Under the pieces are notes generated by a model that made no database searches, had not been told where the DNA came from, and saw only the letters and a program-made list of their open reading frames with translations. Shown here piece by piece: positions 18,191-35,442 of a DNA stretch of 64,000 bases (its first letter is position 1; every line of letters starts with the position of its first letter). The translations under genes were made by a program, and so were the position numbers. Source of the stretch: Candidatus Daviesbacteria bacterium (GTDB lineage: Bacteria > Patescibacteriota > Microgenomatia > Daviesbacterales > UBA10151); the NCBI GenBank assembly GCA_028687915.1, contig JAQTZF010000001.1, positions 802,634 to 866,633 of the forward strand. The letters are read 5' to 3'.

Positions 18191-18191
18191 T

Positions 18192-18743
18192 TTATTTTAC
18201 TGCAGCAATCCTCAACGAAAAACGATAGGTTGATTCTTTCCCCAAAGATATACCGGCTAAATCAACTTTAGATACCAAATTCATATTTGTTTCTTTATTG
18301 GAAAGGCCTAAAAAAAGCTTATCAATACCTGCAAGCGACTTACTGTTAAAGGAAGCCGTAATAGATCCATTCTTATCAACAGACACATCTGTTAAGGTTA
18401 CCTCCGGAGGTGTTAAATATACGATCAAATTAAACATCGTTTTGACCTTTTCATCAGTTCCAAGTTTTGATGAAATTGCATCTAATCTATTTTTCAGAGC
18501 ATATACTGCAACCTCTTTATTTCTAAATGATAAAACTTTATCTTCTGCAACCTTAACCTCATCCATCATCTTGCTACTTTCACGATTTTGGTTGATTCGA
18601 AGAAGCAATACACCCACGGTTAAAATAATCACCAAAACCAATACACCAATACTTAATTTATTAACCAAACTAAGCTTGCTGCTTTGAATTCTTTCTAATA
18701 ATACTGTTTGTGGTAATAAGTTAATAGAAATCTTATTCATCAC
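18192..18743 (-). CDS. pilN: Type IV pilus assembly protein PilN-like
   Basis: INLLP motif, single TM; 4-nt overlap with pilM. Confidence 0.55.
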   Translation of the reverse strand: MMNKISINLLPQTVLLERIQSSKLSLVNKLSIGVLVLVIILTVGVLLLRINQNRESSKMMDEVKVAEDKVLSFRNKEVAVYALKNRLDAISSKLGTDEKVKTMFNLIVYLTPPEVTLTDVSVDKNGSITASFNSKSLAGIDKLFLGLSNKETNMNLVSKVDLAGISLGKESTYRFSLRIAAVK

Positions 18744-19768
18744 TCTTCCCTTAGGGCTAAGCCTACAGCAATGGTATACTGGGCAGAATCAACAAGTTTT
18801 GAAGCAAGGGCTTTATCTTTACCAATAAAATACCAGGGATCAGCCTCCTGAATTTCCAATCCTAAGGTATTAGCAAAATATATTACCAAACCAGGTAATT
18901 TTGCTCCTCCTCCGGATAAAACAATTCTCTTAATCGGATTTTGAACATTTTTTGATTGGAATGCCTGAATCACTCTTTGCGCTTCAGATAAAATCATATC
19001 AATTAAAGGCTTCAGTACCTCATAAATCTTACCACCCAACTGATCTTCCAGTAATCCATAAACCTTTTTATATTCTTCTGCCTGAACTGGCTCAAAGTTT
19101 AAATATTGGGAAATTGCTCTGGTTAAAGCCATTCCACCTGTTCCAATAGATCTGGTCAATAAAATTAAACCTTTTGAAACAACAGCAAAGTCTGTGGAGT
19201 GAGATCCTAGCTGAACAATTAAAGTGGTTGGGGCATAAGGATTATTGCCTACCAAAGCCCTTGTGGCAGCAATTAATTCTGTTTCCAGGGCTTGAGGCTT
19301 TAATTTAACATAATCTAATACCTGTAAATATTTATTTACAGTATTTTTGGGAGATGCTACCACAAACACCGAGGTATTATTTTGAGGTTTAGACCGATTA
19401 ATAACCTGCCAATACAGGTTAACCTGATCAGCCGGCAGAGGAACAAATTCCTCAGCAGAGTAGTGAATAGAAGAAGATAATTCTTCATCAGATAAAAAGG
19501 GCAGGTCATTAATAACTCTGGTAAAAATTTTTGATTCAGGAAGGGCTAAAACTACTGGTAAATCTGGTGCTTTAATAGAGGTTAATAAGGTTTTAATTGC
19601 CTTAGCTTCTCCCTCTAAATCAAATGGATTTTCAGAACTTATTCCAGGCTGAGGCGCGGCAATAGACCCAAAAGACACTAAAGAAGCAGGCTTTGTTTTG
19701 TGGGACAAAACAACCGCTTTTATCGAAAAACTTCCAATATCTAATCCAATAGAATAATCTTGAGCCAT
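18740..19768 (-). CDS. pilM: Type IV pilus assembly ATPase-fold protein PilM
   Basis: Actin-like fold motifs (IGLDIGSFSIKAVV…; SGGGAKLPGL). Confidence 0.75.
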   Translation of the reverse strand: MAQDYSIGLDIGSFSIKAVVLSHKTKPASLVSFGSIAAPQPGISSENPFDLEGEAKAIKTLLTSIKAPDLPVVLALPESKIFTRVINDLPFLSDEELSSSIHYSAEEFVPLPADQVNLYWQVINRSKPQNNTSVFVVASPKNTVNKYLQVLDYVKLKPQALETELIAATRALVGNNPYAPTTLIVQLGSHSTDFAVVSKGLILLTRSIGTGGMALTRAISQYLNFEPVQAEEYKKVYGLLEDQLGGKIYEVLKPLIDMILSEAQRVIQAFQSKNVQNPIKRIVLSGGGAKLPGLVIYFANTLGLEIQEADPWYFIGKDKALASKLVDSAQYTIAVGLALREE

Positions 19769-19791
19769 AGGCAGTAATATTATTGTATCAT

Positions 19792-21558
19792 CTACTTTAT
19801 CTGATAGGTACCCTTAACAATTGAGTATGACCCGGATGGACCTGAACTAAAAAAGGGCGAAGAAAGCCCTGTATCATAATTGATTGTAACCCCATTATCC
19901 AACTTTACCTTCCAGGCAGTTAGCTCTGTTAAATGACTGACATTAGCAATATGTGCTATACCTAAACCCGCATATAGTATTCCCTGGCTTGTACTGTTAT
20001 TTACAGACAGAGCAGTCTGACCATTTACCCTGGAATCATAAGTAGTTAATACCATTATGTAACTTCCAGCAGTTCCTGAACCATTTATGTTTACATTATT
20101 TGCCATGGTAATTATTCCATCTACCACAATTACCCCTGATGATTCTGCATAATTTGAATTTAACCTTAATATACTATTGTTATTTAAATCTAAATTACCT
20201 GTAATCCAAATAGGATCATTGATTACCACATTACAACCATTAGCAAATGTAACATTCCCAACATATTTACCTGGTCCAAGAGTTGTTCTGCAACTGCTTA
20301 TATCTCCGGTGTAAACAACAGCATCCTGTGCCCGTTGTTTCCATTCAGAAATATTTCCTTCAGAAACAGGTAAGTTAGCAGGTAAGGGATCAGTGGAATT
20401 TGGATAATATTTAGCTGCAGTAATATTATTCTTAGTTTGATAATACGCAGAACCGGAAATAGCTAAGTTTTCTAAATTGTCAGCATGAGCACTGCCTCCG
20501 ATAGTTACACCAGGAGCCCCAATAATTGAAGTTACAACACCTCCCATATATGTTTTAAAATCAAGGTCATAAAGGGCAGAGGTCCAGACTGGATTTCTAA
20601 CAGACCAATTAGAAGACCAGGCTGTATTACCTCTGGTATAAGATTGTAAGGAATCAGCTGACCAAACCCAATAATTGCTATTATTAGATGAAGTATCCAG
20701 CATAATCCAATATGTAGTATCTAAAGAGAGACTAACAGGAGAATTAAATGTAATATCTACCCAATTATAGCTAGTGGTGACTAAATTTGCAGTTAAAGTA
20801 CCTGTTGTTAAAACATTACCTTTATCTGGTTTACCACCACTATCAGCCATTAACCGGACAACAATATCCGAAGGAGTACCAACCTTCTTAAGCCTTAACG
20901 ATATTTTATTAATATTACCGCTTATACTCGGTTTAAAACTTTGAGCAACATCCAATACATCATTTCCGGCAATGTTTTTCCCAAAAGTATAATCACTACA
21001 ACTTGGGCTGCTACAAATATTTTGCTGATCAGATAGAGGAGCGGTGCCACCGGCAACAAAAACATCACCGGTAATAAAGGCATTATTACTCATTGAAATA
21101 TTGCCATTTGAATAAACAGATCCATTAATACTGCTATTATTCTCCATCTCAAAGCCACCTTCTCCTACCAAAACACCATAATTAAAAGCATACCCCACAC
21201 CTTTGGAAGCAGTAATCTTTACTGTTTTTTGAGATTTTGGATTTTGCTTAGAAGGATAATAGCCAGTTGATTCAATAATTTTAGATGACTGATTAGGGCT
21301 GGTTACTTTAATAGAAACAGATCCATTATCTAAATTTAATTCTGTATCACCTGAATAAGAGCCCCCAAGGTTTAAAGAAGCCAGCGCCTTATCAACACCA
21401 GCTTCTGCTAAGTCTACTGCGTGAGTAGACTGAACAGAATAATATGTATTTTGAGAGTAAATATTTGCTCCGCCAATAATTGCCAAAGAGTTTAATAAGA
21501 CTAAACCTACAACAATAATTGCCAATACTAATACTTGTCCGGATTCACTTTTTTTCAT
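19792..21558 (-). CDS. Large (588 aa) pilus-associated protein with a prepilin-like N-terminus (SGQVLVLAIIVVGL, no Glu5) and a beta-helix-like repetitive body; putative tip adhesin
   Basis: N-terminal hydrophobic segment after Gly; Asn/Gly-rich turn repeats; position in the pilin gene array. Confidence 0.4.
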   Translation of the reverse strand: MKKSESGQVLVLAIIVVGLVLLNSLAIIGGANIYSQNTYYSVQSTHAVDLAEAGVDKALASLNLGGSYSGDTELNLDNGSVSIKVTSPNQSSKIIESTGYYPSKQNPKSQKTVKITASKGVGYAFNYGVLVGEGGFEMENNSSINGSVYSNGNISMSNNAFITGDVFVAGGTAPLSDQQNICSSPSCSDYTFGKNIAGNDVLDVAQSFKPSISGNINKISLRLKKVGTPSDIVVRLMADSGGKPDKGNVLTTGTLTANLVTTSYNWVDITFNSPVSLSLDTTYWIMLDTSSNNSNYWVWSADSLQSYTRGNTAWSSNWSVRNPVWTSALYDLDFKTYMGGVVTSIIGAPGVTIGGSAHADNLENLAISGSAYYQTKNNITAAKYYPNSTDPLPANLPVSEGNISEWKQRAQDAVVYTGDISSCRTTLGPGKYVGNVTFANGCNVVINDPIWITGNLDLNNNSILRLNSNYAESSGVIVVDGIITMANNVNINGSGTAGSYIMVLTTYDSRVNGQTALSVNNSTSQGILYAGLGIAHIANVSHLTELTAWKVKLDNGVTINYDTGLSSPFFSSGPSGSYSIVKGTYQIK

Positions 21559-22121
21559 ATATTCCTTAAGTTTGTTACTATTATTGAACTTCTGGATTTA
21601 TCAGAAACATTACTTCCGGGCAAAACAGTTATTTGAGTTTTAACTTTTTCTGCTGAAGTTGCAGTAACAATGTTATCGTTTTTATCAAGATATATAAACT
21701 CTACCGACTGCAAAATACTACTTAAAACTCTGTTTTGACTACTTCTGTCGCTTAAAGCATCAGGAAAAATATACTCCCAAAGCAAATTAGTTTTTGCATT
21801 ATCTTTTGTAAAAACTACATAATCATACGTATTAGCAATTACACCCAAAGCATTAAAGGCAGGAACTTTTAACACTAAAGTAGTACTGTTTGAAATATAC
21901 GTTGGAGAAACATCTGGATATCCACTAACCACTGACGATGCCTGACGAGTAAAGTTTTCAATTTCATGAATTGCATCATTAGTATTTAAACCGGATGTTA
22001 CCAAAGAACTCTGACTGTTATATATACCTGTATTATTAACTAAAATACCAGCCAGAACTGTACCAACTATTAAGAATATAGCTGTTACTATTAAAATCTC
22101 CACCAATGTAAATCCTTTCAT
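21555..22121 (-). CDS. Type IV pilin-like protein (MKGFTLVEILIV)
   Basis: Class III signal peptide G|FTLVE. Confidence 0.6.
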   Translation of the reverse strand: MKGFTLVEILIVTAIFLIVGTVLAGILVNNTGIYNSQSSLVTSGLNTNDAIHEIENFTRQASSVVSGYPDVSPTYISNSTTLVLKVPAFNALGVIANTYDYVVFTKDNAKTNLLWEYIFPDALSDRSSQNRVLSSILQSVEFIYLDKNDNIVTATSAEKVKTQITVLPGSNVSDKSRSSIIVTNLRNI

Positions 22122-22522
22122 TGACCTATTCCTCCTTCAGTAACCAAAGTTTCTAAACTTAATTCTTTAGTTTGCCCTTGTTCCTGCCAATTAATTTTAA
22201 CTTTAACTTTTTTTGCCTCTTCTCCGGATAAGCATACAGTTACAGGACAATCATCTATTTCGTATTCAGCTATGGAAGAGGGGAGCTTGGATAAGCTAAC
22301 ATCACTAAATGAGTTGGATCCATTTGATAAACTTTCATAAGGTTGTTTTCTAAAATAATCCAATTCTTTACTGGCAATTTCCCTGGCTAAAGAAACATTT
22401 CCACTGTGACTAATACTTTGAATAGAAGAGGGGAGAGAGGAAACAATTATTGCCAACACTGCAATTGCTCCAATCACTAAAATAAGCTCAATCAAAGAAA
22501 TTCCGCGCTCGTGGTTTCTCAT
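22118..22522 (-). CDS. Type IV pilin-like protein (ERGISLIELILVIG)
   Basis: Prepilin N-terminus with Glu5. Confidence 0.55.
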   Translation of the reverse strand: MRNHERGISLIELILVIGAIAVLAIIVSSLPSSIQSISHSGNVSLAREIASKELDYFRKQPYESLSNGSNSFSDVSLSKLPSSIAEYEIDDCPVTVCLSGEEAKKVKVKINWQEQGQTKELSLETLVTEGGIGQ

Positions 22523-23466
22523 TATTTAGTTAAATTATTTGCAGAAAATAAAACATAATCAAAGAAAAACGGCATTACGTTTTTATAACTTGTTACTTTA
22601 AGAGTTCTTTTTACTTCTCCGGAAGTACCATCAGAAGAATAAACAGTTGCCTGTTTAGGGAAAGAAGCTTCAGCAGTTGTTTCTGGCTTTAAAGCCACAT
22701 CATGATCAAGCTCTGAGTATAAGATTCTTACTCTGACTACAACCGGAAAAACAGTATCCGAATTTATAAAAGGTAGGGTAAATGTGGCTTTGCAATAATA
22801 ATCTTTTGAAGTTCCATCATTAATGTATGTTGTTGTATTTGTGTGATCACAACCACTAAATCCAGAACCTGCACGAAGCGGAGTAGGAACAAAACCATCT
22901 CTGTCTAAAAAAGAATCATAGTATTTTCTTGATGATTTATACTGCCCAGCTGTATTATCCCAATATATAACAGTAATCTCTATAGCAGGTTGATTATCAA
23001 GATTCCCAGGGGGAGAGGGGCGATAATTTGCATTAGGATCTCCAAAATAAAGATCAAATGAATTCCCGGTATATTTTTGAACAGTAATATTATTTGGATC
23101 TGCTAACCAAAATTGAGCAAAATTTCGTTTAGTTAAAGGCTCATCCCAGGCCAAAGCATAATTAGAAGCAGCAGGAATACTCATACCTGTAACTGCTCCT
23201 GCTGCCTGATTATTGCTTGAACTAAAGCCTGTCACCGGAAGATAAGTTCCTCCAATATTATTCTCATTAGCCTTCATTGCTCTTTCTATTGCAGCTTCTG
23301 CTGCAGAAAAAGCCCGGGACGAATCCTCACTTTTTCTTGATGTAGAAACCTCTAAAATACTTCTGCCAATAGTTGATAAACCAATAGCTAAAGCTACCAC
23401 CATGATCAGTAGTAATAAAATTACCACTTGTCCGGAACTATTCTGTTTAAAGGCTTGTTTATTCAT
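22522..23466 (-). CDS. GspK/PilX-like large minor (pseudo)pilin (314 aa, no Glu5)
   Basis: SSGQVVILLLLIMVVALAIG N-terminus; size and missing E5 as in GspK-type tip pseudopilins. Confidence 0.4.
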   Translation of the reverse strand: MNKQAFKQNSSGQVVILLLLIMVVALAIGLSTIGRSILEVSTSRKSEDSSRAFSAAEAAIERAMKANENNIGGTYLPVTGFSSSNNQAAGAVTGMSIPAASNYALAWDEPLTKRNFAQFWLADPNNITVQKYTGNSFDLYFGDPNANYRPSPPGNLDNQPAIEITVIYWDNTAGQYKSSRKYYDSFLDRDGFVPTPLRAGSGFSGCDHTNTTTYINDGTSKDYYCKATFTLPFINSDTVFPVVVRVRILYSELDHDVALKPETTAEASFPKQATVYSSDGTSGEVKRTLKVTSYKNVMPFFFDYVLFSANNLTK

Positions 23467-23468
23467 GT

Positions 23469-24197
23469 TTATCTGGAAATACCTCTTACTTGTACAGATG
23501 TTGAAAAAGGTATTCCACCTTCTACTACAGTAACATCATATGCGTATCCTGCAGAGACACCAGCTGAAGCATTAAATTTAACAAGTATATTGTCACCGTT
23601 TTTCTTAAATACATCTTCAAAAGTTCCTAAGCCAAGTGGGGTATAGCTTACTGAAACTCCGTTTACAGGGTCTGAATCAGTCAGGGATTGCTTATAATTA
23701 GTCCCACCGGTAATAAAATCCTGTGAAGAACAAAGACTAGAATCAAGAGTACCATCTGCTAAATCAGATCTGATAAAACTTATTTTTTGAATTTTACCAT
23801 TACTTGGAGGAGTACTCGTTAAATTTGGCGGAATAAATCTAAATTGAGTATAAGTCCCACCATTTGTTACCACTATAGTATTATTTACAACATTACTATC
23901 TGCAGCATCTATAAATTTTCCAACACAAACCACTCCATCAGCATTCCTAATTTCATTTGATAACTGATCCAAAACAACCTGACCATTTTGCTTAACTTGA
24001 TTTATAGCCTTAACTTTATTCCTTCCCCTTAAAGCATCAATTAGAATATTGGTAAAAATTACCCCTAAAATTACCATAATTGAAACAACTACTAAAAGTT
24101 CAATAATGGTGAAGCCATTACAAGATCTCCGACTTCGTCGGAACAGACCTATTATAGTAAATCCTTTAGAATTTTCTTCTTTATAAAATGCAGTCAT
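23469..24197 (-). CDS. Type IV pilin-like protein (NGFTIIELLVVVS); start uncertain
   Basis: Prepilin motif; the ORF extends further upstream, start trimmed to an internal Met. Confidence 0.5.
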   Translation of the reverse strand: MTAFYKEENSKGFTIIGLFRRSRRSCNGFTIIELLVVVSIMVILGVIFTNILIDALRGRNKVKAINQVKQNGQVVLDQLSNEIRNADGVVCVGKFIDAADSNVVNNTIVVTNGGTYTQFRFIPPNLTSTPPSNGKIQKISFIRSDLADGTLDSSLCSSQDFITGGTNYKQSLTDSDPVNGVSVSYTPLGLGTFEDVFKKNGDNILVKFNASAGVSAGYAYDVTVVEGGIPFSTSVQVRGISR

Positions 24198-24696
24198 AAT
24201 TTGGTTTAGTAATAATTGTCTCCAGGGTTGAATTATGATCTCCTGATGAATCACTCCAACTAATTATTGCAGTTACAGCAACCTCATTTGGAAAAGGTTG
24301 AGTTACTTTAATCTGTCTTAAAAATGACCCTGTTAAACTAACCACTGATGAAGCTAAAGTAACTTTGTTTAAAACAGTCCCAGTATTATTGAGGGAATAA
24401 TAACAATAACCACCAGCTCCACAATATAAAGGGTCACCAACACCTCCCCATAATTTGTTAAAGCAATAATATGTACCATCATCATTAATAGTACTCTCCT
24501 TATTATTATCTCTGAGTATTCTAATTCTATCAATTGTATCTTGAGCGTATTTAGTTGCCTGTGTCTGGTTTTGCGCAAATTGGGCATTCTTTAAGCTATT
24601 TAAAATAATAGCTATTAAGGCAATAATCATGATGGCAGAAACCACGCCTACCACTAGTACCTCAATTAAACTTTGTCCTGATTGTTTAGTATCCAT
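24181..24696 (-). CDS. Type IV pilin-like protein (MDTKQSGQSLIEVLVV); start uncertain
   Basis: Prepilin motif G|QSLIE. Confidence 0.5.
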   Translation of the reverse strand: MDTKQSGQSLIEVLVVGVVSAIMIIALIAIILNSLKNAQFAQNQTQATKYAQDTIDRIRILRDNNKESTINDDGTYYCFNKLWGGVGDPLYCGAGGYCYYSLNNTGTVLNKVTLASSVVSLTGSFLRQIKVTQPFPNEVAVTAIISWSDSSGDHNSTLETIITKPNYDCIL

Positions 24697-26245
24697 AAAC
24701 TTGGAATTCATATAACGAGTAGCCATAAGTCGTTCCTCTGGCAGTCCCATACATTCTCACATATCTGCCTACACCAGAAACATTTAATGTCTCATTCCCA
24801 CCAACACCATTTGGTTGGGTATAGATAGTTGTCCAGTTAATTGCATCATCTGAAGTCTGAATTGTGTAATTTCTACCATAAGCAGCTTCCCAATACAATT
24901 TTATCTGCGTTATGGTGCTTGTAACTCCTAAATCTACATAAATCCATTGGGGATCACTATATGCTGAGGACCAGCGTGAAGTTGTAAGATCATTATCTAC
25001 AGCTTTAGCGCCTTCATGCCCTCCATAATCAATACTTGAAACAGTAGTTATTTTATTTAATGAGATATTTGTGCTGGCAGGAGTAGGGGTGGGGGTAGGA
25101 GGTGGTGTTGATGTTGGCGTAGGTGCTGGTGTGCCTGCAGCTCCATATACTTCAAATTCATACAATGAATAACCATAAATCGTGCCCCTGGCAGTTCCAT
25201 ACATTCTAATATATCTACCGTTGCCAATTGCATTAATTGTATCCACACCACCATCACCATTTACTTGTGTGTAAATCGTTGTCCAATTAGTTGCATCCGG
25301 CGATGTTTGAATCAAATAATCCTTGCCATTTGCAGTTTCCCACCTGAGTATAACCTGAGAAATATCATAACTTGCACCTAAATCTACATAAATCCATTGG
25401 GGATCACTCCACGCAGACGCCCATCTGCTCGTACCAACCCCATCAACAGCTTTGGAACCATTGCTTGAGGAACTTTCGTCCGAAGATGTTGTTGTTATTC
25501 TATTTAAAGCCAGGTTTGCCCCTGCTGGAGGCGGAGTAGCCGTAGGGGTGGGAATAGAGGTAGTAGTTGGTGATGCAGTAGGAGCGGCTGAAGAAGTAGG
25601 CGTTACAGAGGGGGTTGCTGTTGGGGTTGGCGTTGGAGTTGGTGATGAAACAGGAATAGTAATGCCAACAGGAAGATGATCTGTTGTATTTACAAAAACA
25701 GGGCCTCCTTTTTCCACTATTACATTTCTTACATTATTTGTCCCCTGTAATCCAAGTGTTACTTCCAGATATTTATTAGTTGTATCCGTACAACCACTAC
25801 TTGAATCATATAAATGCACTTCAGAGCTAATATTAGTATATCTAACTTGTGCGTTACTGGGCTCACATGGAGTACCACCAACACTTTCCTTAAAACTTAT
25901 CTTATAAATAACTACACCCTGAGGTAAAGGTGTTTCTTGAGCAACAGGAGCTGTACCTACACAATTAGCTAAAAGAGAATAGGAATTATTAGAACCTTCA
26001 GTACTATCTAAACTTACATACCAATAATTTGCTTTACTTACGCTGGCACCGTTTTTACATTGGGTACCAGTTTGAGCATTATTTTGAGCTTGACGTAAGA
26101 CTACCTGAAGCTGATTGGCGGCTTCACTTAATTTTTGATTTTTGCTGTAGTCATTGTAACTTGGCACAGCAACCACTGTTAGGATTGAGATAATACCAAT
26201 AACTATGATTAACTCAATAAGAGTGAAACCCTTTATTCCCCACAT
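24686..26245 (-). CDS. Type IV pilin fused to two tandem discoidin (F5/8 type C / CBM32-like) lectin domains joined by Pro/Thr linkers
   Basis: N-terminal GFTLIELIIVIG; two ~130-aa repeats carrying SRW-S…DPQWIYVDLG…RYVRMYGTARGT-YGYSLYEF-VYG. Confidence 0.65.
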   Translation of the reverse strand: MWGIKGFTLIELIIVIGIISILTVVAVPSYNDYSKNQKLSEAANQLQVVLRQAQNNAQTGTQCKNGASVSKANYWYVSLDSTEGSNNSYSLLANCVGTAPVAQETPLPQGVVIYKISFKESVGGTPCEPSNAQVRYTNISSEVHLYDSSSGCTDTTNKYLEVTLGLQGTNNVRNVIVEKGGPVFVNTTDHLPVGITIPVSSPTPTPTPTATPSVTPTSSAAPTASPTTTSIPTPTATPPPAGANLALNRITTTSSDESSSSNGSKAVDGVGTSRWASAWSDPQWIYVDLGASYDISQVILRWETANGKDYLIQTSPDATNWTTIYTQVNGDGGVDTINAIGNGRYIRMYGTARGTIYGYSLYEFEVYGAAGTPAPTPTSTPPPTPTPTPASTNISLNKITTVSSIDYGGHEGAKAVDNDLTTSRWSSAYSDPQWIYVDLGVTSTITQIKLYWEAAYGRNYTIQTSDDAINWTTIYTQPNGVGGNETLNVSGVGRYVRMYGTARGTTYGYSLYEFQVYGY

Positions 26246-26280
26246 ATATTAAACGTATCAACTTTTAGCAAAATTAGCAA

Positions 26281-26763
26281 TTATTGAGAAGAAATACCCA
26301 TGTCACAATCTCCTCCACAACTGGATAATGGAACCAGGCTGGTATTTGCACAATCAATATTCGTATAAGTACTCTCTGAACCATCTTTTTTTGCACAAAG
26401 AACAAAACCAGTACAGGCTGTTGCCTGGGAAGTATTATTACAGCTTACCGGAGTTGCTGCATAAAAGTATCGCTTGTTGGGATTTATATCAATTGGAATC
26501 TGACTTAAATAAATTCGACTTCCATCATCAGAATCTAAGGGAGCAGTAATATCAGCTAAGTTTAAATCACCTGTAGCAGGGTATTTATGTTCATCGCTTC
26601 TATAAAGTTCTAAGGCTTGCTTTACTACCTGTAAATCCTTAATTCTTTGTCCATCTCTGACTTTAGCAGTAACACCACTATAAACAGCAAAACCAACAGT
26701 TGCCATAATAGCAAGAATTGATATAACCACAAGGAGTTCAATTACAGTAAAACCTCTTTTCAT
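26281..26763 (-). CDS. Type IV pilin-like protein (MKRGFTVIELLVVIS)
   Basis: Prepilin motif; C-terminal Cys pairs. Confidence 0.55.
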   Translation of the reverse strand: MKRGFTVIELLVVISILAIMATVGFAVYSGVTAKVRDGQRIKDLQVVKQALELYRSDEHKYPATGDLNLADITAPLDSDDGSRIYLSQIPIDINPNKRYFYAATPVSCNNTSQATACTGFVLCAKKDGSESTYTNIDCANTSLVPLSSCGGDCDMGISSQ

Positions 26764-27260
26764 GGTGCTTGAACTTGATAAGTTGATGCGGGAGCTGATA
26801 CCGGTGCTGTAGAGCATAGAGAGAGGGAGGGTGTAGTAGCGTTTGAACTATTCTCTAATGTTGCATATAAACAGTAATTTATACAACGAGTAGTAGTGTT
26901 ATCACAAGAGACAACTGATGGCCCAGTAACATTAGAGGCTGTATAAGAATATGTTCCTGAAGCAGGAAGTGGCATTTTTGAAATATATACTTTTGATCCA
27001 AAAGAAATAGTACTACTGCTTGTAAAGGTAATACTGGCAGTAGTAGGGTAATAACCTTGATCAGCATGGTATTGTTCTAAGGCAGACTGGATAGTTGAAA
27101 TATCAGATTTTCTCTTATTATCCCTAGCATTTTTTTGAAGGTTTTGAAAAGAAATAATTGCAATAGTCATTAAAACAGCTAAGATAGAAATTGTTACTAA
27201 TAGCTCTATAAGAGTGAAGCCTTTACTTCTCGCTTGTGCACTAAACCCCTTTTCCCTCAT
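26760..27260 (-). CDS. Type IV pilin-like protein (KGFTLIELLVTIS)
   Basis: Prepilin motif. Confidence 0.55.
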   Translation of the reverse strand: MREKGFSAQARSKGFTLIELLVTISILAVLMTIAIISFQNLQKNARDNKRKSDISTIQSALEQYHADQGYYPTTASITFTSSSTISFGSKVYISKMPLPASGTYSYTASNVTGPSVVSCDNTTTRCINYCLYATLENSSNATTPSLSLCSTAPVSAPASTYQVQAP

Positions 27261-27287
27261 ATATTTACAATATCATATTTAATGAGA

Positions 27288-28931
27288 TTATTTTAGACTT
27301 ACCTTGTATAAGTTACATTTACCATCACATCCATCTGCTACTTTATCCAGACGAAAGTAATAATTAATTTTCATTAAGTCAAAAGAATATACAAAGTTCG
27401 GATCAGTTTTAAATGCAGAAACATATAGTGAATAGCCAGAATTTAAATACTTTCTATATAAGTTTATCAAGTCAGAGTAGTCATCTGTTCCCCATGCAGC
27501 ATCCGCAATACCCATAAACACCTGTCTTTGTGATAACGGTAGTAACTTATAATTAGGTTTTTCATAATAATCAAATAAATAAGGGGGAATTACAGATATA
27601 ATAACTACCTTTTTACTGTTTGTTAAACCTTTAAAGCTACTATTCAATGTTTTTATCACAAGTCGGTTAGAATCGCCTTTAATTAAGTTGTTTTTACCGG
27701 TTAATTCATTAACTACAGGTGGCACCTGACTAAAGAGAATGAAGCCTGCAATAATAACTGCGGTTAAGTATATTAAATATAATTTATCTTTACCTTGAAA
27801 AAAAATCCATAACCGATCTACAAAAATTGCAAAACTTAAAATAAGTACAGGAATAACAAAGAATATATACCTACCCTCTACAATGTAAAAAAATAAACAA
27901 AAAATCAAAGTACTCATAAATGTTAATAAAAAGTACGATGTAATAAGTCTATACTCTTTATTAAAGGGATTAAGAAACAAACCAATTAAACCAAGCATCC
28001 CAATAATAGGGGATGCAATAATTAAACCTTGCCCTGCTGTAGTTAATTCTCCACCTAATATACCTGCCAAATATTGATAAAGGTTAAAGTCGATATTTGC
28101 AATATCCATATAGCCAACAAGAGGCAGACTAAGCTGACTAGAACCAGTTACACCGAAATTAAAAAAACGGAATATATCAGATAGCGGCCATATATGAGAG
28201 CCTTTAGTGTAATATTCAATTAAATCAAAAAATAATAAGGGAACAGTAATAGAAAGGATAAAGATAAACAAACTAGTAATTAGTTTCTTTTTATTTTTAA
28301 TTGATAAAGATATTTTTAAAAAATAACTAGCTGCTAATATACCGCTAACTATAATTTCAACGTATTTTGTAGCATAAAGACAAATTACAACCAAACCAGC
28401 TACAATTATATTTCGTTTATTTACTTCACTTATTAATAACCAAACGGACAAAAGATATAAAAACAAAAATAAGTTCTCTGCCATTGCAGCAGAGGGATAC
28501 CAGTACAAAGCAATATTTGTACAAAAAGCAAAGAATGAAAGCACTTTTAATATAGGATTTAGTTTAAGCTTAGATAATAAAAGGTAGAATAAAACTGCCG
28601 AAAGCAAGCTTAATACAACATTTGCAAAATAATATGTTCGGGCATCATTATTAATAAGATAATAAGGAGCTAAATACAAAGAATAGAGTGGGGGTACTGC
28701 CGCGCTTGCTGACCTACCTTCATAATATAAGTTTAAGCCAAAGCCTAAAGCTAAACTACGAGCAGGAGTAACATAATGAATTGCATCAGGTAAAGGTAAA
28801 AAATCTGAAATAATATTCTCATCCGAATAAGGATTCTTCAGAAGAAGCAAAAATAATAAGAAAATAATTAACAGGATTAAAACCGAACTTATTTCATAAC
28901 GAAATTTATATAAAAAGGAGAACAATTTCAA
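27288..28931 (-). CDS. Polytopic GT-C fold glycosyltransferase (PMT/ArnT GT39/GT83-like); candidate pilin O-glycosyltransferase
   Basis: More than 10 TM segments, DE motif in the first extracytoplasmic loop (YSDENIISDF), embedded among pilin genes. Confidence 0.45.
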   Translation of the reverse strand: MKLFSFLYKFRYEISSVLILLIIFLLFLLLLKNPYSDENIISDFLPLPDAIHYVTPARSLALGFGLNLYYEGRSASAAVPPLYSLYLAPYYLINNDARTYYFANVVLSLLSAVLFYLLLSKLKLNPILKVLSFFAFCTNIALYWYPSAAMAENLFLFLYLLSVWLLISEVNKRNIIVAGLVVICLYATKYVEIIVSGILAASYFLKISLSIKNKKKLITSLFIFILSITVPLLFFDLIEYYTKGSHIWPLSDIFRFFNFGVTGSSQLSLPLVGYMDIANIDFNLYQYLAGILGGELTTAGQGLIIASPIIGMLGLIGLFLNPFNKEYRLITSYFLLTFMSTLIFCLFFYIVEGRYIFFVIPVLILSFAIFVDRLWIFFQGKDKLYLIYLTAVIIAGFILFSQVPPVVNELTGKNNLIKGDSNRLVIKTLNSSFKGLTNSKKVVIISVIPPYLFDYYEKPNYKLLPLSQRQVFMGIADAAWGTDDYSDLINLYRKYLNSGYSLYVSAFKTDPNFVYSFDLMKINYYFRLDKVADGCDGKCNLYKVSLK

Positions 28932-28939
28932 TATCTTCT

Positions 28940-29395
28940 TTAATTAGCTTGCGTTGAGGAACAAACCACCTGTGGTGATACTGTAGTATCTTCTAATGAA
29001 GCACAAACTCTGATTTTGGCAGCACCAGCTGCGGGTACACCATTGCCCATAACAGCCCAACTTCCAGAACAACCACCTGTTGCCCAGGCTGTTGGATCAG
29101 TAGCAAAAGCTGCTCCGCTAGAAGCTGCTGTTGTTACACAGTAATTCTTACCTGTAACTGGATCAGTAGGTACCTTACCAGGAGTAAACAAAGTATCAAC
29201 TAACGCAGGGAATACGGCATTATCAGCTCCTTTTGCTACATCTAATGCTTTTGTTACTTCATGTACATCAGATCTTCTTTTTGCGTCTCTGCCTTTGCTT
29301 TGAACACTTGAGAAAACTGCCATACCAATTGTTGCAAGAATTGCTAAAATTGCGATAACTACCAGAAGTTCAATTAAGGTAAAACCTTTTTTCAT
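28940..29395 (-). CDS. Major type IVa pilin paralog 1 (151 aa)
   Basis: MKKGFTLIELLVVIAILAILATIG; C-terminal Cys pair. Confidence 0.7.
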   Translation of the reverse strand: MKKGFTLIELLVVIAILAILATIGMAVFSSVQSKGRDAKRRSDVHEVTKALDVAKGADNAVFPALVDTLFTPGKVPTDPVTGKNYCVTTAASSGAAFATDPTAWATGGCSGSWAVMGNGVPAAGAAKIRVCASLEDTTVSPQVVCSSTQAN

Positions 29396-29398
29396 GCT

Positions 29399-29884
29399 CT
29401 AATTAGCTTGCGTTGAGGAACAAACCACTTGTGGTGATGCTGTGGTATCTTCTAATGAAGCACAAACTCTGATTTTAGCAGCACCAGCTGCTGGTACACC
29501 ATTTGTCAAAAGTGCCCAACTTCCAGAACAACCACCTGTTGCCCAGGCTGTTGGATCAGTAGCAAAAGCTGCTCCGCTAGAAGCTGCTGTTGTTACACAG
29601 TAATTCTTACCTGTAACTGGATCAGTAGGTACCTTACCAGTTGTAAATTGTGTATCAAGTACTGCTGGAAATGTAGCATTATCAGCTCCTTTTGCTACAT
29701 CTAATGCTTTTGTTACTTCTGCAACATCTTGTCTTCTTTTAGCATCTCTGCCTTTGCTTTGAACACTTGAGAAAACTGCCATACCAATTGTTGCAAGAAT
29801 TGCTAAAATTGCGATAACTACCAGAAGTTCAATAAGTGTGAAACCTTGAGTATTTGTTGATGTCTTGGGCAGAACTTTTTTCAT
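29399..29884 (-). CDS. Major type IVa pilin paralog 2 (161 aa); tandem near-duplicate of 28940-29395
   Basis: Same N-terminus; long identical DNA tracts with paralog 1. Confidence 0.7.
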   Translation of the reverse strand: MKKVLPKTSTNTQGFTLIELLVVIAILAILATIGMAVFSSVQSKGRDAKRRQDVAEVTKALDVAKGADNATFPAVLDTQFTTGKVPTDPVTGKNYCVTTAASSGAAFATDPTAWATGGCSGSWALLTNGVPAAGAAKIRVCASLEDTTASPQVVCSSTQAN

Positions 29885-29932
29885 TTATTTTTCTTTATCT
29901 TTCTCATTATTGTCATAGGGCAATATACTCTG

Positions 29933-30862
29933 TCAATACCCCAGTTTGAAGCTATTTAAATACCAATTTAGAATTTGAGGACCCCAAAGCAGGGCAATAT
30001 AAGCCCCAAGACTTAAGAAAGGACCAAAGGGAATTGTTTGTCCAAAATGCTTTTTACCAAAACCCATAAGAATGACGGAGAAAACTGCTCCTATTAGAAA
30101 AGCCAGAAATAAACCAATGATGGCATTAGGAAAACCCAATGCAATTCCTAAAAATAAAACATATTTAACATCACCCCAACCCATCCCTCTTCCTTTGGTT
30201 ATTATTATAAGAAAAGCAAAGAATAAAGCAGAAACTATTCCTATAATAATAGAGAAAATCGCTGGTTCCCAAATTCTGTAAATTAAAGTCCAAAAATAAT
30301 TAGAGTATGGAGGCATCAAATACTTACCAAGAAAGTTAGATTTTAAACTTAAATAAAACAACCAGGAATTCAAGCCACAAGCCACTAACCAATACCCAAT
30401 AGCTATACCCACAGCAGGATAGGTAACCTTATCCGGCAATAATCCTGTTTTAATATCCGTCAGAAAGAGAATGAATAAAACTAAAACAATAAATATTTTA
30501 AATATAAAATTTAAAATAAGTGGTATTGATTGGACTGTAGGATTTAAAAGAATATTAAAATCAAAGGCTTGAGTTAAAAAAAGACCTGCAACTAAAAACC
30601 CCATCACTAATTCTGCAGCTAGATTGGTAAAAGGGATTGATTTACGACAATATCTACATTTACCAAGTAACATAATGTAGGAAAAAACAGGAAAGAGGTC
30701 GTACCATGCAAGTATATGTTTACACTTTACGCAATACGACCTTCCCCTCAAACTATCCTGCTTGTTTAGCCGATCGGCTACAGCTTTAGCAAAACTTCCT
30801 AAAATTGTACCTATCAAAAAGCCAAAAAAACTTAAACCAATCCACATAATTAATAAGTACAA
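29933..30862 (-). CDS. pilD: Prepilin peptidase / N-methyltransferase PilD (A24 family)
   Basis: CxxC…CxxC zinc site, GMGWGDVKYVLFLG catalytic motif, 8 TM. Confidence 0.8.
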   Translation of the reverse strand: MYLLIMWIGLSFFGFLIGTILGSFAKAVADRLNKQDSLRGRSYCVKCKHILAWYDLFPVFSYIMLLGKCRYCRKSIPFTNLAAELVMGFLVAGLFLTQAFDFNILLNPTVQSIPLILNFIFKIFIVLVLFILFLTDIKTGLLPDKVTYPAVGIAIGYWLVACGLNSWLFYLSLKSNFLGKYLMPPYSNYFWTLIYRIWEPAIFSIIIGIVSALFFAFLIIITKGRGMGWGDVKYVLFLGIALGFPNAIIGLFLAFLIGAVFSVILMGFGKKHFGQTIPFGPFLSLGAYIALLWGPQILNWYLNSFKLGY

Positions 30863-31404
30863 GCAAGCAACATATTAGAACCAACTTCATAAGACAAAGG
30901 ATCTGTTCCTCCGTCATTTGCTCTTCTGTCATTTGGAGCTGTTGTTTGTTGTTCAGATTCTAAATGTGTCATTATCTTCCAATGCGTTCCAGACCCACAA
31001 TATGTGTAATGTAAGGGTGTGGTATTTGTCGGATCTACTGGTAAGGTAGGCACTGTAACGTTTGATTGACCAGCAAAGTTAATGCTAACCCAACCTCCGC
31101 CATTAGTAAGCCTCTTAGTAGTATTTCCTGCTGGAATAATACTATTGTCTGTACAAGTTACGTCTGGAGTACCACTATTACATGCCGGACTTGCCTGACC
31201 TGCTGCTGTACCTTCCTGTAAAGCAACATTAATTGCTTGTTGGATGTTTGCCAAGTCAGTTAATCTGGAGGCATCCCTTGTTCTTCTTGTAAGTTCCAAT
31301 GGATTAATAATAAGTACTACGACCGCTGCTAAAATTGCAATAATTGCAATAACGACTAAAAGTTCTACAAGTGTAAAACCACGGGCAGTTTTTTTCAAAT
31401 TCAT
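30850..31404 (-). CDS. Type IV pilin (ARGFTLVELLVVIAIIAILAAVVV)
   Basis: Prepilin motif. Confidence 0.6.
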   Translation of the reverse strand: MNLKKTARGFTLVELLVVIAIIAILAAVVVLIINPLELTRRTRDASRLTDLANIQQAINVALQEGTAAGQASPACNSGTPDVTCTDNSIIPAGNTTKRLTNGGGWVSINFAGQSNVTVPTLPVDPTNTTPLHYTYCGSGTHWKIMTHLESEQQTTAPNDRRANDGGTDPLSYEVGSNMLLACTY

Positions 31405-31472
31405 TCACCTCCTTTCATCTACTTATTTAAGATTGTCACAGTTTTAAATTTTCGTCAAGTCTCTTTAAACTA

Positions 31473-32681
31473 CTATTTTATGTTTGTAGTTAACTGGTAA
31501 ATTGGTAAAATAATTGATACTACTAAAAAGCCTACCCCAATACCTAAAATCACTAAAACAACTGGTTCAATTAATGTTGTTATATTCTTTAATGAATTAT
31601 CTGATTCTGATTCAAAATAATCAGCTAATTTAAACATGATTTCATCTAACTTCCCAGTCTCCTCACCGGTTTTTATCATCTGTCCGATAATACGGGGGAA
31701 TTCTGGCAACCTAAGCACCTGGCTGGAGAAAGACAAACCTCTTTCAACTCCCTGATAAGCTAATATCAATCCATCTTGATAAACTCTGTTACCGGTAATT
31801 GCAGAAACAATTTTAATTGAGTCCAAAATCGAAAGGCCGGAAGAAACCAATAATCCAAAAGTCCTGGTAAAACTTGTTAAGATAACCAAAGAAGTAATTT
31901 TACCAATTGCCGGTGCTTTTAATAAAAACTCGTCAACCCGTAAGCGACCATCCTGGGTTTGTGAATACCTTCTAAATGATACTAAAGCTACTACAATTAC
32001 TACTAATATTAACCACCAATAACCTAACATAAAATTTGAAAAACCCATTAAAATCTTTGTTGGCAGCGGTAATTCTATATTTGAGTCACCATATAAACTT
32101 AAAAGCTTTGGCATCACAAAAAATACCATAATTAGCATGACCCCAACCATCATTGTTACCACGACGATTGGATAAATCATGGCACCTCTGATTTTTCCCT
32201 TAAACTCCCTTTCTTTTTCTAAATTATTAGCCAGCTGAAGTAATATAATATCTAACTTTCCTGATGCCTGACCTGCAGCAACCAACTGACCATATATCGC
32301 AGGAAAAACATCCGGATGTTTTTGCAATGCTGCTGCAAAATCCAAACCACCTTTAATATCTGCCAATATATCTATTAATACTTTTTTAAATTTCTTATTT
32401 TCCTGTTGGTCTTGCAAAATATCCAAAGCCTCAGATAAAACAAGACCAGCTTGTACCATAGTTGCCAGCTGTCTTGTCATAACAACTACCACACTAAAAG
32501 GTATTCTGTTAAAGTATTTATCAAATAAATTTTCCTGATTTTTATTCTTCTCTTTTATGGAAATAATAATCAGTCTTTTGCGACGCAAAAGCGTGGCTGC
32601 CTGAAACTGATCAACAGTCTCAACTTCACCTTTGTGATATTCTCCATTCATATCCTTGGTTGTGTAAGAAAATATAGGCAT
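31473..32681 (-). CDS. pilC: Type IV pilus platform protein PilC (GspF family)
   Basis: GspF-type duplicated domain architecture with TM segments. Confidence 0.8.
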   Translation of the reverse strand: MPIFSYTTKDMNGEYHKGEVETVDQFQAATLLRRKRLIIISIKEKNKNQENLFDKYFNRIPFSVVVVMTRQLATMVQAGLVLSEALDILQDQQENKKFKKVLIDILADIKGGLDFAAALQKHPDVFPAIYGQLVAAGQASGKLDIILLQLANNLEKEREFKGKIRGAMIYPIVVVTMMVGVMLIMVFFVMPKLLSLYGDSNIELPLPTKILMGFSNFMLGYWWLILVVIVVALVSFRRYSQTQDGRLRVDEFLLKAPAIGKITSLVILTSFTRTFGLLVSSGLSILDSIKIVSAITGNRVYQDGLILAYQGVERGLSFSSQVLRLPEFPRIIGQMIKTGEETGKLDEIMFKLADYFESESDNSLKNITTLIEPVVLVILGIGVGFLVVSIILPIYQLTTNIK

Positions 32682-32685
32682 AATA

Positions 32686-33738
32686 TTACCCTAAGATTTT
32701 GGCTAACAAATCTGGCCGCAGGCTATAAGCCTGACCCATTTCAAGAGAGATTTTTCCTTCCCGAACTAATTTAGCAAGAGAAGCTTCCATTGAAACCATT
32801 CCTAATTCACCGGAGGTTTGAATTAAGTTATCAATCATGTGAGTTTTTGCATCTCTGATTAATGAAGAAAGAGCATTAGTTTTAAGCAGTAGCTCAACTG
32901 CCAAAGCCCTGCCAGGAACAATTGTTGGGATTAGTCTTTGTGAAATAATTGCTTCAAGTACTGCTGCCAGCTGCAGCCTGATCTGTGGTTGTTGATTTTG
33001 GGGAAAAACATCAATCATTCTGTCAATGGATTGCGCAGCAGAATTAGTGTGTAGCGTAGCAAAAACCAAATGACCTGTTTCAGCTATAGTTATTGCAGCA
33101 GCAATGGTTTCATAATCACGCATTTCTCCAACTAAAACCACATCAGGATCTTCCCGAAGAGCAGATCTCAAAGCATTAGGCCAGGTTTTAGTATCCAAAA
33201 GAAGTTCTCTTTGCGTCACGATAGACTTTCCCTTGGGATAAATATATTCGATTGGATCTTCTATAGTTAATATATTTGCGTTGTGTTTTAAATTAATTTG
33301 ATTAATCATGGAAGCTAAAGTGGTAGATTTACCATGCCCGGTTGGACCAGTAATTAAAATAAAGCCCTGGCGGGGAACAATCAATTTATTAGCTACTTCA
33401 GGCAAACCCAAAGTAGACATCTCCGGAATCTGAAGAGGAATTAGCCTTAAAGCAGCTGCTAAATGCCCCTGTTCTTTAAATAAATTAATTCTAAATCTGG
33501 CTTTATCTTCAAATGAAAAACCAAAATCAAGTTCAAAATTTTCATCAAAAGCTTTTTTTTGAACAACAGATAAAAGTGGAGTGACTAAACCAAGTATGTC
33601 AGCATCAAGAAGGGGGGTAGTACCAGTAATTGGCAATAACTCTCCATTTAAACGAAGTGAGGGAGGATATCCGACCACTAAATGTAAATCTGATGCTTTC
33701 CTGGCAACTGCAATGTCTAATAATTGATGTATATTCAT
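32686..33738 (-). CDS. pilT: Twitching-motility / retraction ATPase PilT
   Basis: Walker A GPTGHGKSTT; PilT-length GspE-family ATPase. Confidence 0.8.
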   Translation of the reverse strand: MNIHQLLDIAVARKASDLHLVVGYPPSLRLNGELLPITGTTPLLDADILGLVTPLLSVVQKKAFDENFELDFGFSFEDKARFRINLFKEQGHLAAALRLIPLQIPEMSTLGLPEVANKLIVPRQGFILITGPTGHGKSTTLASMINQINLKHNANILTIEDPIEYIYPKGKSIVTQRELLLDTKTWPNALRSALREDPDVVLVGEMRDYETIAAAITIAETGHLVFATLHTNSAAQSIDRMIDVFPQNQQPQIRLQLAAVLEAIISQRLIPTIVPGRALAVELLLKTNALSSLIRDAKTHMIDNLIQTSGELGMVSMEASLAKLVREGKISLEMGQAYSLRPDLLAKILG

Positions 33739-35442
33739 TTATTCCTCTGCAACCCTCAAAACCTCCTCTAAACTGGTAGTTCCTTCTAAAGCTTTCATAT
33801 AACCATCTTGTTTCAAAGTAATCATTCCTTCTTTTATAGATTCTTCTTCAATAGCCTGAGACGAGGCTCTTTCCAGTACCATTGGCATAATTTTAGAGGA
33901 AACAACTAATACTTCATAAATACCTATTCTTCCCTGATAACCTGTTCCACCACATTCTGCACAACCTGTTCCTTTATAAAGTATGATTGGTTTTTCTTTT
34001 GGATAGAGATTTCCCAATACTCTTCTAAAATTTTCAGCAATCTCAGGCACAGGAGTATAAGTACTCTTGCAATGAGTACAAAGTTTTCTTAATATCCTTT
34101 GTCCAACACAAGCGTTGATAGAGGAAGCCAAAAGAAATGGCTCAATACCCATATCTAAAAGTCGGGGAAGCGCACCGGCAGCAGTATTTGTATGAAGTGT
34201 AGAAAAGACCTGATGCCCTGTTAAAGCAGCCTGAACAGCTAACTCTGCTGTCTCTGTGTCACGAACCTCTCCTACTAACATAATATTAGGATCTTGTCGT
34301 AAAAATGAACGCAAAGCAGAAGCAAAAGTTAAACCTATTGCCGGATTAACCTGAACCTGATTTGCTCCGGGAATTTGATACTCAACCGGATCTTCTACTG
34401 TAACCATATTTACTTTTGTGGTTGATAATCTGGTTAGAACAGAATATAAAGTTGTTGTTTTACCACTACCCGTTGGTCCGCAAATTAAAACAATACCATG
34501 TGGCCTAAGTATTTGTGTTTCAAAATTCTTTAATGCAATGCCACGAAGACCAAGTTCTTGCAAAGTAGGGGGGACAGTAGTTTTTGGCAATAACCTCATA
34601 ACCACTTTCTCACCATAGATTGTAGGAACTGTTGAAACACGAAGGTCATAAATATCCTTCCCAGCACTGTAACTAAAACGTCCATCCTGAGGTAAACGTT
34701 TTTCCTCAATTTTTAGATTTGACAGGATTTTAATTCGTGAGACAAGAGCATCATGCACAGTTCTTGGTAAAATAATCTTTTCATGCAAGATACCATCAAT
34801 ACGATAACGAACCCTGGTCCGATCATCCAGTGGTTCTATATGAATATCAGAAGCTCTGGATGAAACAGCAAACTGAAGAAGTTGGGTAATAATATTTGCC
34901 ACCGGAGCTTCATGAATAACTTCAGCTTTCTCTTCAACAGCTGTTTCCGTAGCCTGAAGTTCACTTACTTCCTTTAAAGCAGAAGTTACCTCAGAAGTTA
35001 AATTTTGAGAATACTGGTCTCCAATAGCCTTCATAATATCTTCCGGAACAGCCAGATAAGGCTTTACATACAGAGCGGATTTTTTCTCAATAAACTGAAT
35101 TACCTGTAAATCCAGAGGGTCAGCCATAGCAACAAATAATTTATCGCCCTTTTTATCAAATGGAATAATTCGATAGCGCCTGGCAACTACTTCAGGTACG
35201 AAATTTAATACTTCTGAAGAGACGGCTTTTCCTTCCAGATTAATAAAAGGCACACCCATCAAAGATGCTCGGGCAGCAGTCATTTTTGCAGGAGCTACGA
35301 GCTGATGTTGGGTAATTACCTGTTCTGTAGAGGAACCACTGTTAATGGATTCTAGTTTAACTGCAGATAGTTGTTGAGCTGTAAGTAAGCCTTGTTTAAA
35401 TAAAACATCTTCAATGCCAAATTGTTCTTGGGCAGTAGCCAT
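33739..35442 (-). CDS. pilB: Type IV pilus assembly ATPase PilB (GspE family)
   Basis: Walker A GPTGSGKTTT, tetracysteine motif CTHCK…CAECGGTG, N1/N2 domains. Confidence 0.85.
   Translation of the reverse strand: MATAQEQFGIEDVLFKQGLLTAQQLSAVKLESINSGSSTEQVITQHQLVAPAKMTAARASLMGVPFINLEGKAVSSEVLNFVPEVVARRYRIIPFDKKGDKLFVAMADPLDLQVIQFIEKKSALYVKPYLAVPEDIMKAIGDQYSQNLTSEVTSALKEVSELQATETAVEEKAEVIHEAPVANIITQLLQFAVSSRASDIHIEPLDDRTRVRYRIDGILHEKIILPRTVHDALVSRIKILSNLKIEEKRLPQDGRFSYSAGKDIYDLRVSTVPTIYGEKVVMRLLPKTTVPPTLQELGLRGIALKNFETQILRPHGIVLICGPTGSGKTTTLYSVLTRLSTTKVNMVTVEDPVEYQIPGANQVQVNPAIGLTFASALRSFLRQDPNIMLVGEVRDTETAELAVQAALTGHQVFSTLHTNTAAGALPRLLDMGIEPFLLASSINACVGQRILRKLCTHCKSTYTPVPEIAENFRRVLGNLYPKEKPIILYKGTGCAECGGTGYQGRIGIYEVLVVSSKIMPMVLERASSQAIEEESIKEGMITLKQDGYMKALEGTTSLEEVLRVAEE

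Follow-up and report, generated by a model that had tools for sequence, protein, structure and literature searches.

Does the alternation of identical and strongly diverged nucleotide blocks in two neighbouring pilin genes of a Candidatus Daviesbacteria genome reflect gene conversion between the copies, and does such recombination diversify the pilus or keep its subunits alike? The two genes lie in a 64-kb window (the whole stretch of DNA that was analysed, with a GC content of 35.5%) of a metagenome-assembled genome (MAG) and are encoded on the minus strand. Both are complete and co-oriented open reading frames (ORFs), i.e. pilin B, the upstream copy (29399-29884, 161 aa), and pilin A, the downstream copy (28940-29395, 151 aa), which are separated by only 3 nt at the junction TAG-AGC-ATG. 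Pilins A and B are on record as MDD2823309.1 and MDD2823310.1, respectively, on the same 1,096,538-bp contig. The first-pass annotation of this DNA had described an adjacent pair of pilin genes at this position, and the two ORFs bear this out. We consider it likely that A and B are tandem paralogs of a major type IV pilin that have evolved in concert through repeated gene conversion within the locus. The effect of the recombination on A and B is mainly to homogenise them, with little diversification.

In a global alignment, A and B differ by 39 substitutions over 456 aligned nucleotides (91.4% identity) and by one 30-nt indel, the leader-coding segment at 29848..29877 (minus strand) that is present in B and absent from A; the encoded proteins share 92% identity. 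The substitutions are far from evenly spread. Three tracts are 100% identical, namely a 127-nt tract (A 29055-29181 = B 29514-29640), an 89-nt tract encoding the hydrophobic N-terminal helix (A 29286-29374 = B 29745-29833), and a 44-nt tract (A 29217-29260 = B 29676-29719), and these alternate with divergent patches of 10-35 nt. Patch 1, in the C-terminal half of helix alpha1 (alpha1-C; A 29261-29285, which is nt 111-135 of the gene; B 29720-29744), is identical at 16 of 25 positions (64%) and contains the replacements S38Q and H41A. Patch 2, in the alpha-beta loop (A 29182-29216, nt 180-214; B 29641-29675), is identical at 21 of 35 positions (60%), and patch 3, in a head loop where VMG in A corresponds to LLT in B (A 29045-29054, nt 342-351; B 29504-29513), at 4 of 10 (40%). 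The C-terminal third (A 28940-29044; B 29399-29503) forms an intermediate class with 99 of 105 nt identical, and in the final 29 nt the sole difference is the stop codon (TAA/TAG). At the 5' end, a stretch of 7 nt in codons 5-7, part of the invariant GFTLIE motif, contains four synonymous changes. The alignment also includes four codons in which every position is changed. The identical tract of ~130 nt and the sharp central divergence that had been claimed for this pair were thus recovered, and the divergence is not uniform along the alignment. The claim of an identical N-terminal coding region applies to the helix-coding 89 nt but fails at the 5' end, where the leader indel and the four synonymous changes are located, and the sharp divergence claimed for the extreme C-terminus is not present, as this part belongs to the largely identical last 105 nt.

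The longest identical run (127 nt) gave P=4e-5 in a permutation test. In a GENECONV-style test, which was applied to the polymorphic sites of a set made up of A, B, and four outgroup pilins, 90 consecutive agreements were observed, a result obtained in 0 of 200,000 permutations. The synonymous sites fall into the same segments. In the three identical tracts, synonymous divergence (pS) is 0, with no differences over ~63 synonymous sites, whereas codons 118-151, the C-terminal third, have a value of 0.15 and patches 1 and 2 have values of 0.71 and 0.77, respectively. Because synonymous sites are identical in the tracts and saturated in the patches, a pattern that selection on the protein is unable to produce, these data indicate recombination, and the three levels of pS (0, 0.15, and ~0.7-0.8) indicate several events belonging to three age classes. 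Recombination, and not selective constraint, is therefore supported as the origin of the mosaic. A permutation of the distance between codons with synonymous differences and the nearest nonsynonymous difference was not significant (P=0.10) because of the scattered synonymous changes in the leader and the C-terminal third; the informative clustering tests are the run-length and segment tests.

Related pilins provide a second line of evidence. A and B were compared in a codon alignment with the pilin of the closest relative, P0002 (P2; 75% amino-acid identity, locus L086), and with three further relatives. The 127-nt tract, which is 100% identical between A and B, shares 63% identity with P0002 and is the least conserved segment in that comparison except for the 10-nt patch 3. 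On the assumption that A and B differ in step with the divergence from P0002, the expected number of differences in this tract is 13.9; none was observed (P=3.5e-8). In patch 2, A and B are less similar to each other (60%) than either is to P0002 (74% in each case), and in patch 1 the identity of B to P0002 is 80%, as compared with 64% between A and B. These segment identities conflict, indicating that different segments of the gene have had different histories. Patch alleles also recur among the relatives: the second half of patch 2 in B (ACACAATTTACA) is the allele of P0003 (P3), and the version in A resembles that of P0002. Together, the classes of synonymous sites and the conflict among segment phylogenies support the recurrent gene conversion or recombination proposed in the first-pass annotation. 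A search of ~15 billion proteins identified no other sequence within 90% identity of A or B, so that the two pilins make up their entire 90% cluster.

The tandem duplication is patchy among the relatives. A single pilin gene is present in L001, L003, L004, and L087, the contig of L086 stops 4 nt past the gene, and L002 (ENA ERZ27249449) carries a pair, with the gene order PilB-PilT-PilC-pilin-PilD-pilin. The L002 pilin is 52% identical to B, and the two genes of L002 form a tandem pair that is independent of the one in the window and shares its layout. They are located at 7135-7632 and 7640-7981, with a spacer of 7 nt, and the second copy is cut by the end of the contig. The upstream copy has the canonical leader (MKKLLPKTSTNTQG), and the downstream copy has a derived one. 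The L002 copies diverge in the leader (pS 0.61) and in codons 52-73 (pS 0.63; where alpha1 ends and the alpha-beta region starts), have no synonymous differences in codons 74-114, and are identical over the final 122 nt before the contig end, a run that was obtained in 0 of 100,000 permutations. The contig ends within this identical tract, as is expected of an assembly break at a repeat. That a homogenised head and divergent islands are common to two distant lineages is mildly unusual. Among the pilin loci recovered from metagenomes, tandem duplication as such seems to be frequent. Three more pairs with 70-82% nucleotide identity were found on metagenome contigs (L079, 22-930; L046, 460-1411; and L032, 620-1550), and in these, as is conventional, the N-terminal halves are nearly the same and the C-terminal halves diverge. 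They originate from a metagenome scan with a generic N-terminal motif, in which most matches were distant pilins. The pilin pairs of L091 and L092 were ruled out as recent paralogs (~50% nucleotide identity), and the scan of genome contigs returned one distant, irrelevant locus only.

If the pair has evolved in concert, homologous recombination between the two direct repeats would have overwritten most of one copy, at different times. The latest events would have generated the exact tracts of 127, 89, and 44 nt, and an older event would account for the ~95% identity of the C-terminal third. The short islands (leader, exposed C-terminal part of alpha1, alpha-beta loop, and a single head loop) would have either escaped homogenisation or entered by recombination with a diverged allele. 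The outcome would be two 147-aa pilin isoforms that are 11 residues apart after cleavage by PilD. We infer that the route was conversion between the copies and not import from outside.

The main rival, a young duplicate combined with imports, is itself a recombination scenario: a recent tandem duplication would explain the identity, the islands would be foreign segments from related strains or species, and the copies would not have converted each other. The single-copy state of the closest relatives with known context and the presence in B of the P3 allele in the second half of patch 2, next to a P2-like version in A, agree with this history. So does natural competence, which is described for Saccharibacteria, another CPR (candidate phyla radiation) lineage (PMC10187176). 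At least four separate short imports would be required, however, i.e. one for the leader region and one for each of patches 1-3, the pS of 0.15 in the C-terminal third would need a separate explanation, the layout recurs in L002, and no donor sequence was found; we therefore regard this history as unlikely, albeit deserving of real weight. Programmed pilin variation of the Neisseria pilE/pilS kind, in which one copy would act as a donor cassette, would equally produce a mosaic of conserved and variable mini-segments, and the variable residues in alpha1-C and the alpha-beta loop are likely to be at the surface, as judged from the structural model. Against it, each copy is complete and has its own start codon and signal peptide. 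Searches of the 64-kb window with A and B (blastn and tblastn) detected no silent, truncated, or promoterless pilin cassettes, only the full-length pair and distant minor pilins, and no G-quadruplex (G4) motif is present within ~15 kb of the pilin locus, the nearest and only motifs of the window being located at 10300 and 13352. The region that is hypervariable between species is identical in A and B, whereas a diversity generator would yield the reverse; moreover, only 11 residues differ, and the databases contain no population variants. The idea of pilin or antigenic variation, which the first-pass annotation had raised together with the possibility of silent cassettes elsewhere, is thus not sustained, and we consider programmed variation very improbable.

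The two remaining explanations dispense with recombination. A recent duplicate altered by point mutation alone, under diversifying selection at surface patches and purifying selection elsewhere, would fit the concentration of the 11 amino-acid differences in alpha1-C and the loops. It would not fit the synonymous changes, which are clustered in the same way as the nonsynonymous changes (pS 0.7-0.8 in the patches and 0 in the tracts) and four of which fall in the invariant GFTLIE motif, or the four codons changed at all three positions; furthermore, between species no region is less constrained than the identical tract. Of a strongly localised mutational process such as a diversity-generating retroelement there was no sign: neither a reverse transcriptase nor a template repeat was noticed close to the locus, where no systematic search for them was made. 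We give this explanation scarcely any credence. Finally, alleles of one pilin gene from two strains could have been joined in tandem during assembly, and both the derivation of the sequence from a MAG and the ends of the L002 and L086 contigs, which lie in or just after a pilin gene as they would at repeats, are in line with such an artefact. The repeat unit, however, has exactly the limits of the ORF, without any duplication of the downstream flank or of the promoter region. The junction sequence, TAG-AGC-ATG, is unique, and A carries a clean in-frame deletion in its leader. In addition, the source contig is 1,096,538 bp long, and the independent assembly of L002 also contains a tandem pair, with a different spacer of 7 nt. 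An assembly error appears extremely remote, and we rate it as the least probable of the explanations considered here.

Concerted evolution of a major pilin pair through conversion is the reading that we prefer, and several points weigh against it. The patches are only 10-35 nt long, and the identities of individual segments are derived from few sites. The search for further copies covered 64 kb of a 1.1-Mb genome, and the sequence itself comes from a metagenome assembly. L001, L003, L004, and L087 are single-copy, so that the duplicate may be young and its islands imported. As to which pilin is the major one, a 184-aa pilin-like protein encoded in the same operon could take this role in place of A and B, its gene having the operon's strongest Shine-Dalgarno sequence.

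The assignment of A and B to the type IV pilins is based on several features. Both contain the prepilin cleavage and methylation motif (Gly followed by Phe+1 and Glu+5), which reads MKKG/FTLIELL in A and ...TQG/FTLIELL in B, both match the Pfam N_methyl domain (E=2.6e-8 for A and 1.3e-8 for B), and both exceed the cut-off score of TIGR02532. The pair is adjacent to PilD and is encoded on the same strand as PilB, PilT, PilC, PilM, and PilO, which is the genomic association of type IV pilins. An AlphaFold model of B, which was built from a 63-sequence alignment, has a mean pLDDT of 89.1 and the lollipop topology of pilins, with a predicted helix at residues 17-65 and predicted strands at 95-100, 137-143, and 153-157. 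A Foldseek search of PDB with this model returned no significant matches. At the profile level, and past the N-terminal helix, the family matches PilE1 of Streptococcus sanguinis (8pfb; profile positions 16-132), PilA4 of Thermus (6xxd; positions 16-116), and another solved pilin, 8tj2, and four cysteines are conserved or nearly so within the family. A and B have the highest GAST content of the operon (0.42-0.44). From their size, their GAST content, the profile matches to major pilins, and a promoter-like site upstream of the pair, A and B are taken to be major pilins, which is the probable assignment.

The two precursors differ in their leaders. That of B (14 aa; MKKVLPKTSTNTQG/FTLIELL) has the canonical form of the family, and that of A is only 4 aa long (MKKG/FTLIELL). 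The long form is present in all close relatives, and the leaders of P0002-P0009 match that of B, indicating that the short leader of A is derived and arose by the 30-nt in-frame deletion. Over 29 nt, the start of A resembles that of a minor pilin gene at 26763; this similarity was considered as a possible conversion tract and rejected, as it represents the conserved signal-peptide motif. After cleavage at the Gly residue, both mature pilins are 147 aa long and differ at 11 residues. When these are placed on the fold according to the AlphaFold secondary structure of B, two (S38Q and H41A) fall in the C-terminal half of alpha1, five (V57T, L61V, V62L, L65Q, and P68T) in the alpha-beta region, three (V111L, M112L, and G113T) in a head loop, and one (V135A) in the loop joining the last two strands. 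The position in the alpha-beta loop that had been suggested for the divergent segment is therefore reproduced by the model for the main patch; patch 1 lies instead in the C-terminal half of alpha1. A Ser or Thr residue is gained or lost in four of the 11 differences (S38Q, V57T, P68T, and G113T). If the pilins are O-glycosylated, such changes would alter potential glycosylation sites.

Pfam scans delimit a complete type IV pilus operon at 17507..35442 on the minus strand, which starts with PilB (33739-35442), PilT (32686-33738), and PilC (31473-32681). These are followed by the 184-aa pilin-like gene (30850-31404), by the prepilin peptidase PilD directly upstream of the pilin pair (29933-30862; Pfam A24_N_bact and Peptidase_A24), and by pilins B and A. 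Further downstream are a gene for a 547-aa polytopic membrane protein (27288-28931), which begins 8 nt after pilin A, a series of minor pilins, one of which contains two F5/8 type C domains, and finally PilM (18740-19768), a 183-aa ORF that has no family match and can be called PilN by position only (18192-18743), and PilO (17507-18190), all on the minus strand. No Rfam family (at the gathering threshold) and no tRNA gene was identified in the whole window. The spacer between pilD and pilin B contains a promoter-like site, TTGACA-16-GACAAT (29909..29936, minus strand), which is a consensus match only; such sites are no more numerous in the region than in shuffled sequence. Because the 3-nt spacer leaves no room for a promoter of A and a promoter-like site is present upstream of B, B and A are likely to be co-transcribed; it may be supposed that both copies are expressed. 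No Shine-Dalgarno sequence precedes pilin A, but its absence is uninformative because the majority of the genes in the window also lack one.

Several neighbours of the pair merit attention. The 184-aa pilin-like gene is preceded by AAAGGAGGTGA, the strongest Shine-Dalgarno sequence of the operon, and is kept at the pilC-pilD position in L001, L002, L004, and L091; its product is a candidate second major pilin or priming pilin. In a 519-aa pilin-like protein of the minor pilin series (24686-26245, minus strand), two F5/8 type C (discoidin, galactose-binding-like) domains come after the N-terminal methylation motif; this modular minor pilin could serve as a carbohydrate-binding tip adhesin. A 178-aa ORF (26281-26817, minus strand) overlaps the upstream pilin gene (26760-27260, minus strand) by 58 nt. 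Its true start is probably the ATG at 26763 (MKRGFTVIEL), which would give a 4-aa leader as in pilin A. The 547-aa membrane protein has a counterpart after the pilin in L003 (1133-2647, 53% identity). The alignment of the two begins at residue 45, so that translation may in fact start downstream of the TTG. This protein had no matches in searches of Pfam, NCBIfam, and PDB sequences, and its similarity to PMT_2 (GT-C) glycosyltransferases is faint (blastp E=0.034; hhalign probability of 2%; PPLY motif). In L092-L094, a PMT_2-like gene is located between two pilin genes. The 547-aa protein is a tentative candidate for a pilin glycosyltransferase.

Concerted evolution of tandem paralogs is itself well known, and the A/B pair is a clear further example. 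Gene conversion has been established as its cause for tufA/tufB of Salmonella and babA/babB of Helicobacter pylori. The pilin pair resembles both in its tracts of identity that include synonymous sites, its segment-specific phylogenies, and its islands of divergence, and differs from both in that the copies are immediately tandem (3 nt apart) and encode the subunit of a surface filament, with islands at positions likely to be at the surface or at subunit interfaces. With pilE/pilS of Neisseria it shares a type IV pilin mosaic of conserved and variable mini-segments resulting from non-reciprocal recombination. The differences are that both of the copies here are full-length, that the window contains no silent 5'-truncated cassettes and the locus no nearby G4, that the hypervariable head is identical in A and B, and that the organism is represented by a MAG and has no known animal host. 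In Saccharibacteria, which are also members of the CPR, TM7x produces type IV pili with small lollipop-shaped major pilins, a high GAST content, and many minor pilins, as seen here, but its PilA1 and PilA2 are the pilins of two different pilus systems encoded at separate loci (PMC11623550), unlike the near-identical tandem copies A and B.

The closest characterised system is PilE1/PilE2 of S. sanguinis. In that species, two or three adjacent and near-identical major pilins are encoded and are present in the filament (PMC4832360, PMC10628169), PilE1 and PilE2 occur in it in comparable amounts, a third pilE gene is found in half of the strains, and the pilE copy number varies (PMC4832360). The arrangement of PilE1 and PilE2 within the filament is apparently stochastic, which would create a mosaic pilus surface (PMC10628169) and is a plausible functional model for A and B. 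The Daviesbacteria locus likewise contains adjacent, co-oriented, and highly similar genes for probable major pilins in a pil locus beside pilD, with an unusually long leader (18 aa there and 14 aa in B) and with relatives that vary in copy number. In S. sanguinis, however, the first 110 residues are near-identical and the diversity is confined to the C-terminal 30%, whereas the C-terminal globular part of A and B is homogenised and the two differ in the leader, alpha1-C, and the alpha-beta loop; moreover, the leaders of PilE1 and PilE2 are equal and those of A and B are not. By analogy only, A and B are most likely assembled into the same filament.

A bolder proposal is that in some Daviesbacteria two co-expressed pilins, held near-identical by conversion so that they can co-polymerise, form a minimal two-cassette system, in which the islands in alpha1-C, the alpha-beta loop, and the leader are protected by selection and are shuffled, through continuing exchange between the copies, into chimeric pilins within the population so that the surface or glycosylation of the pilus is changed. 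We regard this as doubtful. If it were true, such shuffling could help the cell to evade pilus-specific phages or to retune its attachment to host cells, and the recurrence of the layout in lineages whose pilins are only 52% identical would represent convergent selection and not coincidence.

To our knowledge, almost nothing is known of type IV pili in CPR bacteria other than Saccharibacteria. Type IV pili are the best candidates for the attachment of CPR (Patescibacteria) cells to, and their interaction with, host cells. The pilin pair described here offers, within a very small genome, a clean and quantifiable case in which conversion tracts are of several ages, and the positions that have resisted homogenisation point to residues at which the two isoforms may differ in function. 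Heteropolymeric pili, documented so far in S. sanguinis, may thus also occur in CPR bacteria.

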